A stretch of 24,000 nt of DNA from Mycoplasma sp. P36-A1 (GCF_049478495.1 NZ_CP168083.1:1832991-1856990); one strand, 5' to 3'. Counted from the first letter of the stretch, positions 598-20,919 are shown. The notes: generated from the letters alone by a model not told the origin. A program made the numbers and translations.

Positions 598-2250
598 TTA
601 ATCCTCCTTTATCGGTATAAACATTGTAACTATTGTATATTCATTAACTTTTGATTGAACTTGTAAGCCGTATTTTTTACCATATAAATTTGTAAGTCTT
701 TCACTTACATTTGATATTCCTATACTGTTGGTATTTCTTGAATTTGATGTTATTTCTTCTAATTTTTCTTTTGACATTCCTTTTCCATTATCTTTAATTA
801 TTATAATATAATCGTTTATATTTTTATTGATTATTACTTCTATTTTCCCTGATTCTAGACCTCGTAAACCATGTTTAATAGCATTTTCAACTATTGGTTG
901 TATACTAAATCTAGGTAGTTTTGGATTTAGATCTTGTTTATTATTTATTATTAATTTAATGCTTTCACCAAATCTTGCTTTTTCAAGTGTAAAATAGACT
1001 TCGATATTTTCTAATTCTTCTTCTAAAGGTATTAATTGATCTGGCTTTTTTAGCACTCCTCTGAAGTAATTACTTAAATCTACAAGTAATTTTCTTGATT
1101 TATCAGAATCAGTTCTTGATATAGATATTATTGTATTTAAAATATTAAAAAGAAAGTGTGGATTTATTTGTGCCTGTAGCATAGCATATTCTGCTTCTTT
1201 TACTTTTTCTTTATTGATGTCTATTTCTGCTAATTCTAGTTGCGTTGACACTATGCTTGCTAATCCTCTAATAAATTCATTATTTGATTCTTCTGTTAGA
1301 CTTTTATTTTTAAGTATTAAAACTAAGTAGCCTATCTTTTCTTTGTCTTGGTATAGAGTTGCTGCCACATAATTATCTTCATTATGTAGTAAATTGAATG
1401 GCTTTTTATTTCTTCTTTTGGTATCTTTGGCTAATAATTCATCTACAATATCATAATTTACATTGTATCTTTTATGCGCACTAGCTATTAATGTCTTTTT
1501 TTCACTATATATCATTGTATGTTTTATGTCACTATCTTCTTCTATTATTGATAATGCTTTACTTATATTTACAGGATCATTGATACCTTTTCTTAAAAAT
1601 GGCATCATTCTTCCTGCAAGTCTAAGTGCATGACTAGCTTTTTTTGAAGAATATAGCTCTACATGAAGTATGCTTTGTTCAAATACGCTTAATAGTAAAA
1701 CTGCACCCATACAATTTAAAATAAACATCATTGATAAACTATTTACTATAAATGATACTGCTTGATCAAATGGACGGGCTATCAATAGTATAAGCAATCC
1801 TTCGATAACACCCGCAATAGCCATTGCTATTGCAACTTTTTTTGAACGGTAGGGAAAAAAGTCTCTTTTATAACAAAAACTACCAATAATTCCAACTACT
1901 AGTGTTGATATTGAACACGCTATTGCGGTTAGATCTGCTGGAGAATAAAAATATCGATGTATTCCAGCTGCAAGACCTGAGGCTATTCCAACCCATGGGC
2001 CAAATAGTAGTCCACCTGAAAATACAACTACAGATCTTGTATTTACTATTCCTTCCATTCTCTGTGTACCAAATATTGTTGCACATATTCCTAGTATTGA
2101 GAAGATTAACGCTAAAGGAATAATGTCATTTTTAGCTAATTTTTCTTTAGTTAGCCAGTATGAAAAGTCTTTAAATCTTGTCATTAATTGTCCTGCCATT
2201 ACTAGTAATCCTAGATTTATTACTATTGTGTATACTGCTGCAAAGTCCAT
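598..2250 (-). CDS. LytS-type sensor histidine kinase (multi-TM 5TMR-LYT-like N-terminus, GAF-like middle, His_kinase + HATPase C-terminus)
   Basis: 550-aa ORF. The N-terminal ~200 aa are strongly hydrophobic. The QINPHFLFNILNTI motif is typical of LytS/YehU-type kinases. The C-terminus has ATPase motifs (IVENAIKHG, DNGKGM). It sits immediately upstream of a LytTR regulator. Confidence 0.85.
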   Translation of the reverse strand: MDFAAVYTIVINLGLLVMAGQLMTRFKDFSYWLTKEKLAKNDIIPLALIFSILGICATIFGTQRMEGIVNTRSVVVFSGGLLFGPWVGIASGLAAGIHRYFYSPADLTAIACSISTLVVGIIGSFCYKRDFFPYRSKKVAIAMAIAGVIEGLLILLIARPFDQAVSFIVNSLSMMFILNCMGAVLLLSVFEQSILHVELYSSKKASHALRLAGRMMPFLRKGINDPVNISKALSIIEEDSDIKHTMIYSEKKTLIASAHKRYNVNYDIVDELLAKDTKRRNKKPFNLLHNEDNYVAATLYQDKEKIGYLVLILKNKSLTEESNNEFIRGLASIVSTQLELAEIDINKEKVKEAEYAMLQAQINPHFLFNILNTIISISRTDSDKSRKLLVDLSNYFRGVLKKPDQLIPLEEELENIEVYFTLEKARFGESIKLIINNKQDLNPKLPRFSIQPIVENAIKHGLRGLESGKIEVIINKNINDYIIIIKDNGKGMSKEKLEEITSNSRNTNSIGISNVSERLTNLYGKKYGLQVQSKVNEYTIVTMFIPIKED

Positions 2251-2922: not shown

Positions 2923-2926
2923 GAAA

Positions 2927-2977
2927 AAAAATCTTTATGAAAACTAGTTAAAAAAGCTAGTAATCATAGAGATTTTT
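2927..2977. terminator. Bidirectional hairpin between convergent genes (DsbA-like gene and small ORF)
   Basis: AAAAATCTTTATG (2927-2939) pairs with CATAGAGATTTTT (2965-2977), with one T:G pair. An inner stem ACTAGT/GCTAGT forms in the loop. The structure is flanked by an A-run on the left and a T-run on the right. Confidence 0.5.
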
Positions 2978-3074
2978 ATTTGCTTACTATTTTTATTTTT
3001 GTCATGTTGTTAAAGTTAATCCATGTTACTAAGAATAGTAGCGTGGCACTTAGTATGAACCAAATTATATTCAT
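2976..3074 (-). CDS. Hypothetical 32-aa hydrophobic peptide (MNIIWFILSATLLFLVTWINFNNMTKIKIVSK)
   Basis: Own translation; the ORF is too short for the ORF track. GAGGTGGAG Shine-Dalgarno lies 4 nt upstream of ATG 3072-3074, and the stop is TAA at 2976-2978. It has its own promoter (3094-3122) and a terminator. It has one predicted TM segment and a Lys-rich tail. Confidence 0.4.
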   Translation of the reverse strand: MNIIWFILSATLLFLVTWINFNNMTKIKIVSK

Positions 3075-3093
3075 CAGTCTCCACCTCATATCT

Positions 3094-3122
3094 ATTATAC
3101 AACAATGTTTAAAATATGGCAA
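3094..3122 (-). promoter_or_regulatory. Sigma-A-type promoter of the small ORF
   Basis: On the minus strand: TTGCCA (3117-3122), a 17-nt spacer, then TATAAT (3094-3099). It sits ~20 nt upstream of the RBS and just downstream of the ftsH terminator. Confidence 0.5.
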
Positions 3123-3178
3123 TGTTTAGTTCAAAATATGTTCAATCTTAACAATCTAATAGTTTTTTAACTAAAAAC

Positions 3179-3203
3179 AAAAAAATACGATTTCTCGTAT
3201 TTT
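3179..3203 (-). terminator. Rho-independent terminator of ftsH
   Basis: Stem ATACGA (3185-3190) / TCGTAT (3195-3200) with loop TTTC, extendable by A:T pairs. It is followed on the minus strand by a T-run (A-run 3179-3184 on plus). It overlaps the ftsH stop codon. Confidence 0.6.
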
Positions 3204-8276: not shown

Positions 8277-8311
8277 TTAAGCGACTAAAATAAATTAAGG
8301 AGATAAATGTC

Positions 8312-9592
8312 ATGATTAATAATAACATAATTAATAAAAACAATAAAGAATTAAAAGAAATTATTGGAATTAATGATTCCAATATTAATATATATAAATT
8401 TCAAGATGAAAAAATTAAAGATAATATTTCTAAAGTATTTTATGGAATTCTATTTTTTAATGATAATGTTTGCCCTAAATGTAATAAAGTTCATAATAAA
8501 TTTTATGTACATAATAAAAAAGTATCTCTTATTAAATTACCTATGGTTTCTGGTTTTGATGCTTATTTAAAACTTACTAAAACTCGTTATAAATGTATGG
8601 AATGTAATAAAACTTTTATTCCTGCTAATACCCTAACTAATCCTGGATGTTTTATTTCTAATAAAGTTAAATATCTTATTGCTCTTAAATTAACTGATAT
8701 GCTTACTTGTACTTATATTGCTAAAGATCATAATGTATCTACACATTCTGTTTTTAGAGTATTAGATACTTATGCAGAGGCTGCTAAATCTACTACTATT
8801 AAATCCTATTTACCAAAAGTACTTCATTTTGATGAGTTTAAATCTACTAAAGATGCTGATGGCAATATGTCCTTTGTTATTATGGATGGTGAAAAAAGAA
8901 AGCTACTAGATATCGTAGAAAACAGACAAAAAGCTTACTTAGAGAACTATTTTAGCTACTATACAAAAGAAGCTATTGATAATGTTGAATATATTGTAAT
9001 TGATATGTATACACCTTATATTGAAATCATTAAAAATGTCTTTACTAATGCTAAAATAATATTAGATAGATTTCATATTTATCAGAATTTAACTAGAGCC
9101 TTTAATAAAACTAGAGTTGCAATTATGAATGCAGATGAAAAAAACAGAAATAAGTTCAAAAATTTTTGGAAACCTATATTACAGTTAAAAGAGAATCTTT
9201 CAGAAGTGATGTTTAAGCATGCAACCTTTAATTATAAGTTCACAAACAATAAAGCAATTCTAAATTATTTAATCGAAAATAATGAGGACTTTAAAAATAA
9301 TTATGAAATATATCAAGATTTACTATTTTCTTTAAAATACAATAATATGGAAATGTTTAAGAAAACAATTGATCAGCCTAATAAATTAGCTTCAGATAAA
9401 ATTAAAACTTGTATATCTACCTTTATTAAGTATTTTGAATATATTAAAGATAGTTTCGATGTTGAGTATAATAATGGAATAATAGAAGGTACAATATCTA
9501 AATTCAAGAAGTTAAAAACAATATCTTGCGGGTTTAGAAGATTTGAAAGATTAAAAACTAGAATAATGATACAAGAATTATTAATTGTATAG
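8312..9592 (+). CDS. ISL3-family DDE transposase
   Basis: 426 aa. The N-terminal zinc-finger pairs are CPKC...CMEC. Characteristic ISL3 motifs are present: HFDEFKS, VIDMYTPY, LDRFHIYQNL, and C-terminal NGIIEGTISKFKKLKTISCGFRRFERLKTRI. Confidence 0.92.
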   Translation: MINNNIINKNNKELKEIIGINDSNINIYKFQDEKIKDNISKVFYGILFFNDNVCPKCNKVHNKFYVHNKKVSLIKLPMVSGFDAYLKLTKTRYKCMECNKTFIPANTLTNPGCFISNKVKYLIALKLTDMLTCTYIAKDHNVSTHSVFRVLDTYAEAAKSTTIKSYLPKVLHFDEFKSTKDADGNMSFVIMDGEKRKLLDIVENRQKAYLENYFSYYTKEAIDNVEYIVIDMYTPYIEIIKNVFTNAKIILDRFHIYQNLTRAFNKTRVAIMNADEKNRNKFKNFWKPILQLKENLSEVMFKHATFNYKFTNNKAILNYLIENNEDFKNNYEIYQDLLFSLKYNNMEMFKKTIDQPNKLASDKIKTCISTFIKYFEYIKDSFDVEYNNGIIEGTISKFKKLKTISCGFRRFERLKTRIMIQELLIV

Positions 9593-9686
9593 AAAAAGCA
9601 TAAAAAAAAGGATACAACATTTCTGTTATATCCTGTACTAACTCATATATCAAATTGTAAAATTCCACCCTATTTGACAAAGAGCC

Positions 9687-9725: not shown

Positions 9726-10130
9726 TTAATTTCTAAATTGTTCGTAAGCATTTTTTCTATTTAGATTTTTTCCTAATTTTACTTCAGCTTGTTTTATTTC
9801 AAAACTAGTGCTTGCTGTTTCTATTGTTTTTTTACTTGCTTCTATTTCTGCTAATACTCTTTCTAAATCAATATCTGAAATATTTTCGGCTGAGTTTACA
9901 AAAATAGTTACTAAATTATTCCATACAAATAAGTATCCACTACTTACTGTCATTTCAAATCTTTCTCCATTTTCATCTTCATAAGTTAATATACCATCAT
10001 TAATCTTATCTACCATTGGTGCATGGTTTGTTAATATTCCTACCATACCATTTGATGTTGGTACATTTACTATTTTAGCTCTACCTTCAAATTGTTTTCT
10101 TTCAGCTTCAGAGATTACTAATGTAAACAT
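9726..10130 (-). CDS. atpC: F1 ATP synthase subunit epsilon
   Basis: 134 aa. It is the last gene of the atp operon. It has an N-terminal beta-sandwich-type sequence and a C-terminal helical part. Confidence 0.92.
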   Translation of the reverse strand: MFTLVISEAERKQFEGRAKIVNVPTSNGMVGILTNHAPMVDKINDGILTYEDENGERFEMTVSSGYLFVWNNLVTIFVNSAENISDIDLERVLAEIEASKKTIETASTSFEIKQAEVKLGKNLNRKNAYEQFRN

Positions 10131-10141
10131 TATATCAACTC

Positions 10142-13978
<3,837 letters not shown>

Positions 13979-13985
13979 TTATCTA

Positions 13986-14519
13986 TTATTTTTTTAAGAT
14001 CGTTGTTTTCATACGATCTAATTTATTTGCGATACTTCCATCTATTACTAAATCATTTATTACTACTTTTATTCCAGCAAGTAGTGTTTCGTCGATTCTA
14101 TTAATAGCAACATATTTTTGATTATATTTATTTTCTAAGGCATCTTTTATTTCTTCTAATTGAGTTTGATTTAACTCTTTAGTTGAGTAAATTATTGCTT
14201 CATGTATTTTATAGTGTTTAAGGTAAGCATTTTTATATGCTTTTGTAATATCAACAATGTATCTTACTCTTGATTTATCAACTAGTAACTTTAAAAAGTT
14301 TAGTACATCTTTGTCTAAGATATTTGAAAAAATATTTTCTATCATTTCTTTTTTGTTTATCTTAGATAAATTTTTACTTTCTAGTATTTTAACTAAATCT
14401 TTATTTGAAGAAATGATTTCATTAATGCTAGACATTTGTTCTAAAACTATATCTTGTTTATTGTCTTCTAGCGCTAAATCAAACATTGCATTTGCGTAAG
14501 CTACACTAACTGCTTCCAT
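13986..14519 (-). CDS. atpH: F1 ATP synthase subunit delta (OSCP)
   Basis: 177 aa in the canonical position between atpF and atpA. The N-terminus (YANAMFDLA) is OSCP-like. The ATG overlaps the atpF stop. Confidence 0.9.
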   Translation of the reverse strand: MEAVSVAYANAMFDLALEDNKQDIVLEQMSSINEIISSNKDLVKILESKNLSKINKKEMIENIFSNILDKDVLNFLKLLVDKSRVRYIVDITKAYKNAYLKHYKIHEAIIYSTKELNQTQLEEIKDALENKYNQKYVAINRIDETLLAGIKVVINDLVIDGSIANKLDRMKTTILKK

Positions 14520-15019
14520 TATTCGTTTAACTCCTTAATGAAGTCTTGAACAATATTTTCAGATTTTTGTTCATCAATATTTCCTTTAACAATTTTACGT
14601 GCAACATCCATTGCTATATCAACAACTTGACCTTCTACTTCTTTTTGTGCTGAAGCTTTTTCTCTTTCTATTTCAATACGTGCTTTTTCCATTTTATCTG
14701 TTGCTTCATTTTGTGCCTTATTAAGTATATCTTCTTTAATTTTTATCGCTTCATCTTTAGATTTATCTAAAATTGATTTTGAATCAATGCGAGCTTGTTT
14801 AAGTGCTTCGTTTGCTTGTTGTTCAAACTCTACTGCTTTTTTGTTTGAAGTTGATGCTGATTCAACTTGATTCAAAATATACTCTTCTCTTCTTTGTAAG
14901 AAGTCCATAAGTGAATTCCAAAAGAATTTCTTGAAGAAGAAGAATAATATTCCTGTACCTATCCAAACAGTTATTAATTTTGCAAGTGTAGGAAACAAAT
15001 TTATTTCTACATTACTCAT
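14519..15019 (-). CDS. atpF: Fo ATP synthase subunit b
   Basis: 166 aa with a single N-terminal TM followed by a long charged helix. It is in the canonical position. RBS AAAGGAG. Confidence 0.92.
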   Translation of the reverse strand: MSNVEINLFPTLAKLITVWIGTGILFFFFKKFFWNSLMDFLQRREEYILNQVESASTSNKKAVEFEQQANEALKQARIDSKSILDKSKDEAIKIKEDILNKAQNEATDKMEKARIEIEREKASAQKEVEGQVVDIAMDVARKIVKGNIDEQKSENIVQDFIKELNE

Positions 15020-15037
15020 ATTATTTTTCTCCTTTCA

Positions 15038-15274
15038 TTAAGACATTTTTGTAAAGATTAGAATTAATGCAATCAATAGTCCATAAAGTGCTGATGATTC
15101 AGCTACTGCTTGACCAATGATCATCATTGTTCTTATTTTTCCTTCTGCTTCTGGGTTACGTCCTACTGCTTGTGCAGCTCCTGATGCTGATACCCCTTGT
15201 CCTGCTCCAGTTCCACAACCTGTAAGTACAGCTAGTCCTGCACCTATTGCGATTAATCCATTATTTATATCCAT
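15038..15274 (-). CDS. atpE: Fo ATP synthase subunit c, copy 4 (last transcribed)
   Basis: 78-aa helical hairpin with the GxGxGxG motif (GCGTGAGQG), the loop RNPE, and the ion-binding Glu in AVAESS. It has its own RBS AAAGGA and a TAA stop. Confidence 0.93.
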   Translation of the reverse strand: MDINNGLIAIGAGLAVLTGCGTGAGQGVSASGAAQAVGRNPEAEGKIRTMMIIGQAVAESSALYGLLIALILIFTKMS

Positions 15275-15292
15275 AGTATTTTTATCCTTTCA

Positions 15293-15529
15293 TTAAGACA
15301 TTTTTGTAAAGATTAAAATTAATGCAATCAATAGTCCATAAAGTGCTGATGATTCAGCTACTGCTTGACCAATGATCATCATTGTTCTTATTTTTCCTTC
15401 TGCTTCTGGGTTACGTCCTACTGCTTGTGCAGCTCCTGATGCTGATACCCCTTGTCCTGCTCCAGTTCCACAACCTGTAAGTACAGCTAGTCCTGCACCT
15501 ATTGCGATTAATCCATTATTTATATCCAT
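15293..15529 (-). CDS. atpE: Fo ATP synthase subunit c, copy 3
   Basis: Protein identical to the other copies. By eye, the nucleotide sequence is identical to copy 2. Confidence 0.93.
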   Translation of the reverse strand: MDINNGLIAIGAGLAVLTGCGTGAGQGVSASGAAQAVGRNPEAEGKIRTMMIIGQAVAESSALYGLLIALILIFTKMS

Positions 15530-15547
15530 AGTATTTTTATCCTTTCA

Positions 15548-15784
15548 TTAAGACATTTTTGTAAAGATTAAAATTAATGCAATCAATAGTCCATAAAGTG
15601 CTGATGATTCAGCTACTGCTTGACCAATGATCATCATTGTTCTTATTTTTCCTTCTGCTTCTGGGTTACGTCCTACTGCTTGTGCAGCTCCTGATGCTGA
15701 TACCCCTTGTCCTGCTCCAGTTCCACAACCTGTAAGTACAGCTAGTCCTGCACCTATTGCGATTAATCCATTATTTATATCCAT
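15548..15784 (-). CDS. atpE: Fo ATP synthase subunit c, copy 2
   Basis: Protein identical to the other copies. It has its own RBS and stop. Confidence 0.93.
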   Translation of the reverse strand: MDINNGLIAIGAGLAVLTGCGTGAGQGVSASGAAQAVGRNPEAEGKIRTMMIIGQAVAESSALYGLLIALILIFTKMS

Positions 15785-15802
15785 AGTATTTTTATCCTTT
15801 CA

Positions 15803-16039
15803 TTAAGACATTTTTGTAAAGATTAGAATTAATGCAATCAATAGTCCATAAAGTGCTGATGATTCAGCTACTGCTTGACCAATGATCATCATTGTTCTTA
15901 TTTTTCCTTCTGCTTCTGGGTTACGTCCTACTGCTTGTGCAGCTCCTGATGCTGATACCCCTTGTCCTGCTCCAGTTCCACAACCTGTAAGTACAGCTAG
16001 TCCTGCACCTATTGCGATTAATCCGTTATTTATGTCCAT
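15803..16039 (-). CDS. atpE: Fo ATP synthase subunit c, copy 1 (first transcribed)
   Basis: Protein identical to the other copies. It has a unique upstream region with RBS GTGGGGGT inside the atpB 3' end, and two unique synonymous codons (GAC2, AAC5). Confidence 0.95.
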   Translation of the reverse strand: MDINNGLIAIGAGLAVLTGCGTGAGQGVSASGAAQAVGRNPEAEGKIRTMMIIGQAVAESSALYGLLIALILIFTKMS

Positions 16040-16041
16040 AT

Positions 16042-16797
16042 TTATTTACCCCCACTCTTTTGATTCATTGCATCAAAATCTAATTCTAAGCTAGTAAATA
16101 CAAGTGTTAGCAATGTAAATACAAATGCTTGAATTGCTCCGGCAAATACATCAAAATAGAAATGTAATGGTGGAGAAACTACACCACCTATTATATTCAA
16201 CAACGGTAATCCATCGGCATCAAGTGGTCCAAATACAAATATTTGATTTTGTAACCACGCTGTTGCGGTCATAAACACCATCATAATTAATGTTCCCGAT
16301 AATAAGTTACCAAAAATACGCATTGACATACTTAATGGTTTGGCAACTATGTCCATTAAGTTTAGAGGTAGCATAACAGGTACTGGTTCAAAGTAACCTT
16401 TAACCATGCTTTTTGCTCCATTAAACTTAAACTCATAAACGTATTTAAATGCAAACGTTATTAGCACTAATGCAAGTGGTATATTATAGTCTGTTGTCGG
16501 TGCATCTAATGGTAACAATAATGGTAGCCAGTTACATGTTAACAACAATAATATTAGCATTGTACAATAAGGTTTAAGTATACCTGCGCGTCCTTTGAAC
16601 ATTTGATCAACTAAACCACTCATCATATCATAATATATTTCTATGATTGTCATAAACTTGCCATTTTTTTTGAATGGATCTTGTTTATTAATGTAGTTTC
16701 CAGCAATTACAAACACTATACATAAGAATATTACTACTCCAATATAGGTAATTGTTTGTTGAGACTGTAGTTCTAAGAAGCTATTTACTATATTCAT
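16042..16797 (-). CDS. atpB: Fo ATP synthase subunit a
   Basis: 251-aa polytopic membrane protein. The essential Arg lies in LSMSMRIFGNLLSG. Confidence 0.93.
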   Translation of the reverse strand: MNIVNSFLELQSQQTITYIGVVIFLCIVFVIAGNYINKQDPFKKNGKFMTIIEIYYDMMSGLVDQMFKGRAGILKPYCTMLILLLLTCNWLPLLLPLDAPTTDYNIPLALVLITFAFKYVYEFKFNGAKSMVKGYFEPVPVMLPLNLMDIVAKPLSMSMRIFGNLLSGTLIMMVFMTATAWLQNQIFVFGPLDADGLPLLNIIGGVVSPPLHFYFDVFAGAIQAFVFTLLTLVFTSLELDFDAMNQKSGGK

Positions 16798-17143
16798 CCT
16801 TTATACCTCCTTTAATTCCATATATTAATATCGCTATTCTGATATTCATACAACCTAAGAAAGTGCATATTAATCCTTCAACATTCATCCATTTAATTGA
16901 AAGAATCATTACAAATGCATATAACACTATTCTTAACAGGTAATTACTCAGATTTCTAGTTATCCCTGATTTGCTTCCACTAATATCAAAAAACTTATCA
17001 TTTAATGTTAAATTAATATTGCTTACTAAAACCCCTAGAATATAACAAATTGCATATTCATATTTTTTTGTAGCAATCATTATTCCAACTATGAATAACA
17101 ATGCGATTATTAAACCAATTTTTCTAAATTCTTTAATTATCAC
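16781..17143 (-). CDS. atpI: ATP synthase protein I
   Basis: 120-aa hydrophobic protein directly upstream of atpB and overlapping it by 17 nt. Confidence 0.7.
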   Translation of the reverse strand: MIIKEFRKIGLIIALLFIVGIMIATKKYEYAICYILGVLVSNINLTLNDKFFDISGSKSGITRNLSNYLLRIVLYAFVMILSIKWMNVEGLICTFLGCMNIRIAILIYGIKGGIKDEYSK

Positions 17144-17381
17144 GACTAATCACCACCAACCTAATTAAACCTAAAATTACAAACAATATTCCTAATAAGA
17201 CTGTTACTATTACAGCTATTCCATTATTGTTAAAAAATTTGTCATCTAAATACATCCCAATCAAAACAGAAGCAGCCATATATCCACCTAGTGAACTTAA
17301 AGTTGAAACAATTTGACGGTTAGTTTGTGAGTTGTGATTACCTTTATTACTTCGTTCCAAACAAACGATCCCCTGCATCAC
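17133..17381 (-). CDS. AtpZ/AtpI-family small membrane protein (start uncertain)
   Basis: Two-TM pattern: GGYMAASVLIGMYLDDKF...IAVIVTVLLGILFVILGLIRL. It sits upstream of atpI. The annotated ATG start overlaps the upp 3' end by 35 nt, so the true start may lie further downstream. Confidence 0.5.
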   Translation of the reverse strand: MMQGIVCLERSNKGNHNSQTNRQIVSTLSSLGGYMAASVLIGMYLDDKFFNNNGIAVIVTVLLGILFVILGLIRLVVISRDN

Positions 17382-20385: not shown

Positions 20386-20919
20386 TTATTTCTCCTTTAA
20401 AACTCCTTGTACATAGTAATATAATTCTTTATCATAATTTTTTGTACAGGTTATTATTGTTATAGTATTTCTTTTTTCTAATGAAAGGCTTTTATTTCTT
20501 TCAATTATTCCTGTTTCTAATACTTCAAATGCTATTTGTTTATTATTAATTTTCAAATATAAGCTATCTGATTTTACTAGTTCAGGTATTCTATTAAAAA
20601 CCAAGTTATATGTATCTGTATAATGACCATATATTGTATAACCTTTTTCTGAATATTCATATAATGATACTAGATTATTGTTATCTATTATATTTTGTGA
20701 TTTTGAATATTCTGTGTTATAAACTGGTTTTTCTAATGATATTTTAGGTATTGATAATATATTATTATTAGATTCTAAATTTACTATCTTTTTTATTTCT
20801 TTTTCATCTTCTTTTGTTTGTAGTTCTAATAATACTTTTGCTTTATTTCCATCTACTATTATCAATATACTACATAATATTAAAAGTATTGTTGTTAATA
20901 CTTTTTGAATGAGCACCAC
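20386..20919 (-). CDS. Sortase-fold membrane-anchored protein (atypical: no Arg after the Cys)
   Basis: 177 aa with an N-terminal TM. Sortase landmarks are SIPKISLEKPVY, IYGH (catalytic His context), VFNRIPELVKSDSLYL and TIITC (TLxTC). The GTG start lies directly after the noc TAG, and the stop is 2 nt before the tagD ATG. Confidence 0.55.
   Translation of the reverse strand: MVLIQKVLTTILLILCSILIIVDGNKAKVLLELQTKEDEKEIKKIVNLESNNNILSIPKISLEKPVYNTEYSKSQNIIDNNNLVSLYEYSEKGYTIYGHYTDTYNLVFNRIPELVKSDSLYLKINNKQIAFEVLETGIIERNKSLSLEKRNTITIITCTKNYDKELYYYVQGVLKEK

Follow-up and report, generated by a model that had tools for sequence, protein, structure and literature searches.

The supply of about ten c subunits per a subunit from a single ATP synthase operon is usually explained by differential translation. 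The model is Escherichia coli, in which the atp operon carries one atpE gene and a highly efficient atpE initiation region is held to supply approximately 10 c per a. Operons with several c genes have also been described. Acetobacterium woodii possesses atpE1, atpE2 and atpE3, with atpE2 and atpE3 encoding an identical 8-kDa subunit (Rahlfs et al. 1999, as cited in PMC7911925), C. aceticum has two atpE copies (PMC7911925) and Desulfatiglandales genomes have two to four, according to a 2026 paper (PMC13343851). Here we describe a locus in a 24,000-nucleotide stretch of DNA from Mycoplasma sp. P36-A1 (GCF_049478495.1, NZ_CP168083.1:1832991-1856990; the whole stretch is hereafter called the window), which contains a genuine tandem amplification of atpE, with four copies, in an F1Fo ATP synthase operon that is ordinary in other respects.

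The first-pass annotation of this DNA, made from the sequence alone, had treated A. woodii as the classic exception among bacteria, which normally carry one atpE; the examples of the Desulfatiglandales and C. aceticum demonstrate that multi-copy atpE is not confined to it. A. woodii is a close comparator. Both operons have several tandem atpE genes between atpB and atpF in an F-type arrangement, both produce identical 8-kDa single-hairpin c subunits from more than one gene (atpE2 and atpE3 in A. woodii), and the Q...E-S/T Na+ motif is present in the c subunits of both. Among solved structures, the best matches to the window protein were also from A. woodii, namely c1 and c2 (E-values 5.7e-29 and 3.6e-18). 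Unlike the window, A. woodii encodes a further c subunit, the V-type-like c1, which is a double hairpin with one carboxylate missing, and forms a hybrid c1:c2/3 ring; its identical copies number two, whereas the window has four that are near-identical in DNA. Judged as an A. woodii-type operon, the locus has more than one atpE and lacks the four-helix c1 of ~16–18 kDa, all of its products being 78-amino-acid hairpins with E59. The window also resembles anaerobic Rnf-dependent bacteria such as the Desulfatiglandales and C. aceticum (Brandt & Muller 2015, as cited in PMC13343851) in having several c genes or hairpins per F-type operon.

A more remote parallel is found in mammals, where the three nuclear genes ATP5MC1-3 specify an identical mature c subunit (PMC8062469). 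The likeness lies in the use of several genes for a rotor subunit whose mature form is always the same; in mammals, these genes are scattered, are each under their own regulation and do not form a tandem operon array. They also differ in their targeting peptides.

A near-perfect tandem array of four atpE genes

Tandem Repeats Finder identified a single strong tandem array at 15017..16040 on the minus strand, with a period of 255, 4.0 copies, 99% matches, no indels and a score of 2006, in which each 255-bp unit consists of a 237-bp atpE gene and an 18-bp spacer. A 1-kb repeat at 99% identity is not explicable by chance. The six-frame list of open reading frames (ORFs) of the window contained four minus-strand ORFs of 78 amino acids with identical translations, each with an ATG start and a TAA stop: copy 1 at 15803..16039, copy 2 at 15548..15784, copy 3 at 15293..15529 and copy 4 at 15038..15274. 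Four complete, protein-identical genes with an exact 255-bp period, each with its own Shine-Dalgarno (SD) sequence, ATG and TAA and all of the simple single-hairpin type, had been proposed by the first-pass annotation, and the array without indels and the four identical ORFs bear this out. Its range was 15020-16039; the last gene ends at 15038, with position 15020 falling in the atpE-atpF spacer, and the genes are on the minus strand.

Unit-by-unit comparison revealed that copies 2 and 3 are 100% identical across 255 bp, copy 2 sharing with copy 3 also the 18-nt upstream spacer with the SD sequence AAAGGA. Three synonymous differences, at gene positions 6, 15 and 214, separate copy 1 from these two, and its upstream region is its own. 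Copy 4 is distinguished from the inner copies by a C at position 214, which it has in common with copy 1, and is followed by the atpF spacer TGAAAGGAGAAAAATAAT, the ribosome-binding region of atpF, in which 2 bases differ from the inter-copy spacer. The array is near-perfect, not perfect, and the earlier description of it as perfect was slightly wrong, given four synonymous variant positions, three in copy 1 and one in copy 4. Since three distinct sequence types are present (copy 1, the inner copies and copy 4), at least three copies are proven; the fourth rests on the assembler having separated two identical inner units. In the public record the same protein appears under the consecutive accessions XRA52562-64 on a single contig of 1,966,006 bp.

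Copy number of atpE in related genomes

Relatives were surveyed by 11 exact-protein look-ups of homologs, a sample and not a census, which covered 12 lineages with a c protein at least 72% identical. Their gene context was conserved as (cspA)-tsaC-rpiB-upp-atpI-atpB-[atpE]n-atpF, and 8 of the 12 sampled related lineages had tandem atpE genes in this context, in 2–4 copies and with c-protein identities of 74–100% to the window protein. The amplification is thus a trait of this clade, neither of this genome alone nor of the wider order, and the rarity that the first-pass annotation had attributed to multi-copy atpE was overstated, such arrays being routine here.

P36-A1 has four copies. Three copies are present on a contig of a metagenome-assembled genome (MAG), L035 (period 252, 93.5–97% DNA identity; NCBI accessions MDR1782183-85), and two each in L095 (95.9% DNA identity) and L101 (86%). 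The isolate 'Bacilli bacterium PM5-3' (GCA_029893765.1) has at least three: its contig 11 (L008) stops just inside a second atpE copy, and its contig 21 (L006) begins with a partial copy unlike both the first and the last copies. At least two copies are found in L007, L003/L004, L094 and L100, in each case at contig ends. One atpE as assembled was found in L001/L002/L005, L036, L102 and L096-99, all of which are short-read contigs, so that some of them are possibly collapsed repeats.

Short-read assemblies of relatives were seen to break exactly inside the atpE array, namely at PM5-3 contigs 11 and 21, the end of L007, the ends of L003/L004 and in L100. Such breaks result in 'partial' c-subunit annotations (for example, P0066, 54 amino acids) and in an atp operon split over contigs.

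Divergence and selection among the copies

Paralogs within a genome had DNA identities of 86–100% (86% for the L101 pair, 92.6% for L094), whereas copies from different genomes were never more than 86% identical in DNA, and no positional orthology was apparent among copies of different genomes. The changes between paralogs comprised 17 synonymous and 0 nonsynonymous in L094 (P=9e-11), 8 and 0 in PM5-3, 7–13 and 0–2 in L035, and 26 and 7 in L101. Synonymous divergence (dS) between the paralogs of relatives reached 0.70, with ratios of nonsynonymous to synonymous divergence (dN/dS) of 0–0.11 and probabilities under neutrality down to ~1e-10. Differences that are so overwhelmingly synonymous indicate that the extra copies are constrained as proteins and, therefore, are very probably expressed, and the dS of up to 0.70 indicates that in some lineages they are old and not transient amplifications.

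The arrays reflect either concerted evolution or repeated origin. Concerted evolution is supported by paralogs that are closer to each other than to orthologs and by the place of the variants in the window, which lie in copies 1 and 4 at the edges of the array; a separate duplication event in every lineage is a possible alternative. The occurrence of C214 in the edge copies and T214 in the identical inner copies would fit stepwise growth of the array, in which a middle copy may have gained T214 and subsequently been duplicated by unequal crossing-over.

Translation initiation regions

Copy 1 begins 2 nt past the atpB stop codon and has an SD-like GGGGG within the 3' end of atpB. Each repeat unit extends as far as the start codon of the gene that follows, and its spacer TGAAAGGATAAAAATACT is nearly the same as that of atpF, suggesting that copies 2–4 reuse an atpF-type ribosome-binding site. 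Predicted SD:anti-SD energies were −12.4 kcal/mol for copy 1 and −9.4 kcal/mol for copies 2–4, compared with −13.4 kcal/mol for atpB and −12.7 kcal/mol for atpF, from which the atpE initiation regions appear no stronger than those of atpB and atpF. Little local structure was predicted in the initiation regions of any of these genes. The window bacterium faces the same problem as E. coli, namely about 10 c per a subunit from one polycistronic mRNA, but differs from it in that its atpE initiation regions are predicted to be no stronger than those of the neighbouring genes and in that the gene is present four times. Among relatives, no link was found between a weak ribosome-binding site of the first copy and multi-copy status, as L001 (single) and L003 (multi-copy) both have a strong GGAGG.

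The c subunit and its ion-binding site

Profile searches assigned the product to the F-type c subunits, with scores above the curated thresholds of both PF00137 (62.1 bits, cut-off 24) and TIGR01260 (49.2 bits, cut-off 43.95), here given for copy 1. Over its full length, the 78-amino-acid protein can be aligned with c subunits of the single-hairpin type; it has the loop GRNPE and contains the conserved helix-2 carboxylate as E59, aligned to E65 of Ilyobacter tartaricus. The top four matches in the PDB were all Na+ c-rings: A. woodii c1 and c2 (4BEM), Fusobacterium nucleatum (3ZK1) and I. tartaricus (1YCE). Residues Q26, E59, S60, S61 and Y64 align to Q32, E65, S66, T67 and Y70 of I. tartaricus, the helix-2 stretch GQAVAES is the same as in that organism, and a helix-1 glycine motif is shared (GCGTGAGQG in the window versus GIGPGVGQG in I. 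tartaricus). The window protein therefore resembles those of I. tartaricus, Propionigenium modestum and F. nucleatum in being a single-hairpin c subunit with the same ion-site residues (PDB 1YCE, 3ZK1), at a sequence identity to these Na+ c-rings of ~50%, with the difference that its own Na+ dependence is a prediction.

Earlier work has assigned Na+ specificity from the Q...E-S/T motif (PMC7911925, PMC4320612), and A. laidlawii and E. dolichum were listed among organisms with Na+-motif c subunits in an earlier survey (PMC2359735). Based on the complete Na+-binding signature, the ATP synthase of the window is predicted to be Na+-coupled. The signature is not specific to multi-copy genomes. In L095, both c subunits (L095:2042-2562) have AVAEAS instead of AVAESS, the Na+-ligand Ser beside the carboxylate being replaced by Ala, which may point to a different ion specificity within the clade.

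Multiple c genes and fused c subunits were also present in distant genomes. Among the matches listed, several c genes or hairpins in one F-type operon occurred in the distant MAGs L019-L024, L032 and L069-L091. Fused F-type c subunits of 319–416 amino acids with four or five hairpins were located between atpB and atpF in MAGs from Desulfobacteraceae, other Deltaproteobacteria, a 'Proteobacteria' MAG and Hydrogenedentota (L020:1679-2899, L021:2623-3603, L022:1851-2846, L023:2455-3414, L024:2929-4179 and L032:25-1002), each followed by a single-hairpin c gene of 82–108 amino acids. The carboxylate is kept in only some of the fused hairpins (AES or SES), the others having CQT, SQT or AQS, a design that recalls the hybrid rotor of A. 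woodii and goes much further. The Halanaerobiales MAG L019 has two c genes (2198-2452 and 2926-3183) with an atpI-like ORF between them; the first is without the helix-2 carboxylate (GQVISGST) and the second has the full Na+ motif (GQAVAEST). Multiple c-homologous segments were also seen in several metagenome contigs (L069-L091). In the distant multi-c loci that were inspected, unlike in the window, the c subunits are divergent or are fused into proteins of several hairpins, and the carboxylate is absent from some of the hairpins, a condition read in the literature as modulating ion binding. The window array is homogeneous and so changes only gene number.

The atp operon and its host

The operon that houses the array is of the F-type, complete and encoded on the minus strand; atpB precedes the array and atpF follows it. 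The ORF list and profile matches support the canonical order atpI-B-E-F-H-A-G-D-C given by the first-pass annotation. The product of atpI (16781..17143, 120 amino acids) matched PF03899 ATP-synt_I with 28.9 bits (cut-off 25.1). Upstream of atpI, a small membrane ORF of 82 amino acids (17133..17381, minus strand) is possibly atpZ-like, with a weak match to PF09527 (18.4 bits, below the cut-off of 26.6); the orthologous position in L035 and L096 likewise has a weak PF09527 match. The F0 subunit a gene, atpB (16042..16797, 251 amino acids), had F0F1 subunit A models as its best NCBIfam matches, all of them under their curated cut-offs (the best being NF004485, E-value 2.7e-32, 112.3 bits versus a cut-off of 249), and its orthologs in relatives match PF00119.

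Downstream of the array on the same strand are atpF (14519..15019), encoding the F0 subunit b of 166 amino acids (TIGR01144 105 bits, cut-off 65.5), atpH (13986..14519; delta/OSCP, 177 amino acids; PF00213 137.7 bits), atpA (12434..13966; alpha, 510 amino acids; PF00006, PF00306 and PF02874), atpG (11559..12434; gamma, 291 amino acids; PF00231 246 bits), atpD (10142..11542; beta, 466 amino acids) and atpC (9726..10130; epsilon, 134 amino acids; PF02823 68.1 bits). The Pfam families of atpH, atpA, atpG, atpD and atpC were all well above threshold. The mechanically called atpD ORF reaches a TTG at 11581, overlapping atpG; the true start is likely to be the ATG at 11542, which is preceded by GGAAGGAG, and the beta subunit of relatives is 466 amino acids long. 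A terminator-like hairpin with a T-run lies downstream of atpC (9609..9634, minus strand) and is the probable end of the operon; it is a consensus match only, in a region where 3 terminator-like sites were counted and chance alone would give 3.2. The terminator scan of the region detected no such site inside the array on the minus (coding) strand. A promoter scan was uninformative, with 36 sites compared with 43.8 expected in this AT-rich DNA.

Assignment to the N-ATPases (atpDCQRBEFAG) was considered and rejected, as the scores for the alt_F1F0 c and a models, TIGR03322 (30.4 bits) and TIGR03306 (59.3 bits), were below the respective cut-offs of 130.85 and 302.1, and as the gene order is the canonical IBEFHAGDC and not the atpQ/atpR order. 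On the opposite strand, an ISL3-family transposase gene (PF01610, PF14690 and PF13542; 8312-9592, plus strand) starts ~130 bp beyond the end of atpC and has a 15-bp short tandem repeat at its 5' end (8311-8342). An imperfect tandem repeat of 24–26 bp (1461-1535; 2.8 copies, 68% matches) was found within a sensor-kinase-like ORF of 550 amino acids (598-2250, minus strand).

The window bacterium belongs to a low-GC (29%) Bacilli lineage. None of the 24 long ORFs of the window has an in-frame TGA, tryptophan being encoded by 25 TGG codons, a sortase is encoded at 20386-20919, and the nearest c subunits are those of 'Bacilli bacterium' isolates and MAGs and of Erysipelotrichaceae. The use of the standard code, the sortase and the affiliation of the c subunits together make the name Mycoplasma doubtful, and P36-A1, with a genome of 1.97 Mb, was probably misassigned to Mycoplasma and would be a walled bacterium of the Bacilli or an Erysipelotrichales-like one.

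Interpretation of the array

We favour, with a probability of roughly 0.6, the interpretation that the locus is an atpE dosage array, selectively retained, homogenised by recombination and without a hybrid rotor. The repeated unit would consist of the 237-bp gene and an 18-nt spacer bearing a ribosome-binding site that first served atpF, and copies 2–4 would each be translated from the AAAGGA site. One polycistronic mRNA would then offer four c cistrons for each a, b and F1 cistron and would help to meet a demand for ring monomers of roughly 10:1 without an exceptionally strong atpE initiation region. As the four products are identical single hairpins, the ring would be homomeric, and since identical products allow the array to alter only the amount of c per transcript, a role in dosage is favoured. 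Dosage had also been suggested in the first-pass annotation; the idea is plausible and gains indirect support from the strong purifying selection on the paralogs of relatives and from the unremarkable predicted initiation regions of atpE. Purifying selection on every copy would keep the array, and unequal homologous recombination or gene conversion would homogenise and resize it, which would explain why paralogs cluster by genome, why the edge copies diverge and why relatives differ in having anything from 1 to 4 copies. The first-pass annotation had suggested a hotspot of recombination, and with its variable copy number and its edge copies unlike the inner ones the array does look recombinationally dynamic. 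A wider proposal, that this little-studied Bacilli clade sets the c:a stoichiometry of its predicted Na+-coupled F-ATPase mainly by gene number and not by a specialised initiation region, with gain and loss of the 255-bp unit by recombination tuning rotor supply on a short evolutionary timescale, is tentative and on balance rather doubtful.

Several observations weigh against a selected dosage array. P36-A1 by itself provides only 3 synonymous differences (P=0.017), and the case for selection on each copy depends mainly on the relatives; the last step, which produced the two identical inner units, may have been very recent and neutral. A single atpE is found in three to four related lineages as assembled and, among the matches listed, in each of ~35–40 more distant loci (52–69% identity, mostly Erysipelotrichaceae), which include the complete chromosome of Massilimicrobiota timonensis, so that extra copies are not needed for a working enzyme of this type. 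The existence of single-copy relatives, the variation from 1 to 4 copies among close relatives and the 100% identity of copies 2 and 3, which implies a very recent expansion, would suit neutral or nearly neutral drift of copy number, with extra c being harmless and the four copies a transient snapshot of no dosage benefit. Duplicates would in that case arise by slipped or unequal recombination at short similar junctions near start codons, and an A/T-rich motif is common to the atpB-atpE and atpE-atpF junctions (AAATAAATATG versus AAAATAATATG). However, dispensable copies would quickly decay or be deleted in a recombinogenic array, whereas the paralogs of relatives have persisted to a dS of 0.13–0.70 at a dN/dS of 0.11 or less, and the multi-copy state extends over two-thirds of the sampled lineages (8 of 12, at c identities of 74–100% to the window protein). 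We regard drift as unlikely, although it deserves serious consideration. Selection could also act on variability itself instead of on a fixed dose, the array being a rapidly reversible copy-number switch that matches rotor supply to conditions, for example the Na+ load, the pH or the energy state. Closely related lineages do differ in copy number: L001 (single) has the same c protein as L003/L004 (at least 2) and is found with them in the same samples. The variant pattern in the window fits a stepwise expansion from 2 to 3 to 4; the diverged paralogs of L101 and L094 (86% and 92.6% DNA identity) point to stable long-term arrays and not to constant turnover, making such a switch improbable.

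An assembly artefact, by which the assembler over-expanded a repeat with fewer true copies, is very improbable. The number of inner copies does depend wholly on spanning reads, copies 2 and 3 being indistinguishable, and relatives assembled from short reads have breaks, or possibly collapsed repeats, at this locus. Against this, the array has three distinct copy types, the record is a single 1.97-Mb contig, implying long reads that easily span 1 kb, and L035, L095 and L101 independently assemble 2–3 diverged copies that are unambiguous. Published work accounts for multiple atpE genes by a hybrid or heteromeric rotor of the A. woodii kind, in which different c subunits mixed in one ring alter the ion/ATP ratio or the binding of ions (PMC7911925; PMC13343851, citing Brandt & Muller 2015). 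For this genome such a rotor is refuted by the four identical products and the lack of a double-hairpin c1. A tblastn search of the window found no further c homolog, and neither a double-hairpin c1 nor a hairpin without the carboxylate was seen in the window and the close relatives inspected. In some relatives the paralogs do vary a little in protein sequence (by 2 amino acids for L035 copy 2, 2 for the L095 pair and ~5 for the L101 pair), but the substitutions lie outside the Q/E/S ion-site residues, and we consider a mixed ring scarcely credible.

Significance of the array

A literature search found no paper describing this clade or its atpE array. Multi-copy atpE, including copies encoding an identical protein, is already known from A. 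woodii and will be no surprise to specialists familiar with that operon; what sets this locus apart is a homogeneous array of four identical single hairpins with no V-type-like partner, conserved in variable number across a clade. As the array breaks, or may collapse, in short-read assemblies, annotations of the atp operon in MAGs from this clade can wrongly show it as partial or as having one atpE. Several atpE genes in an operon need not mean a hybrid rotor, and this bears on ion/ATP ratios that are deduced from genomes. A homogeneous atpE array of four genes, conserved as 2–4 copies in a clade and shaped by purifying selection, points to gene dosage as another way of reaching the subunit stoichiometry, and if stoichiometry is indeed set by gene number, the clade would be a natural and genetically tractable test of how the subunit stoichiometry of ATP synthase is achieved.

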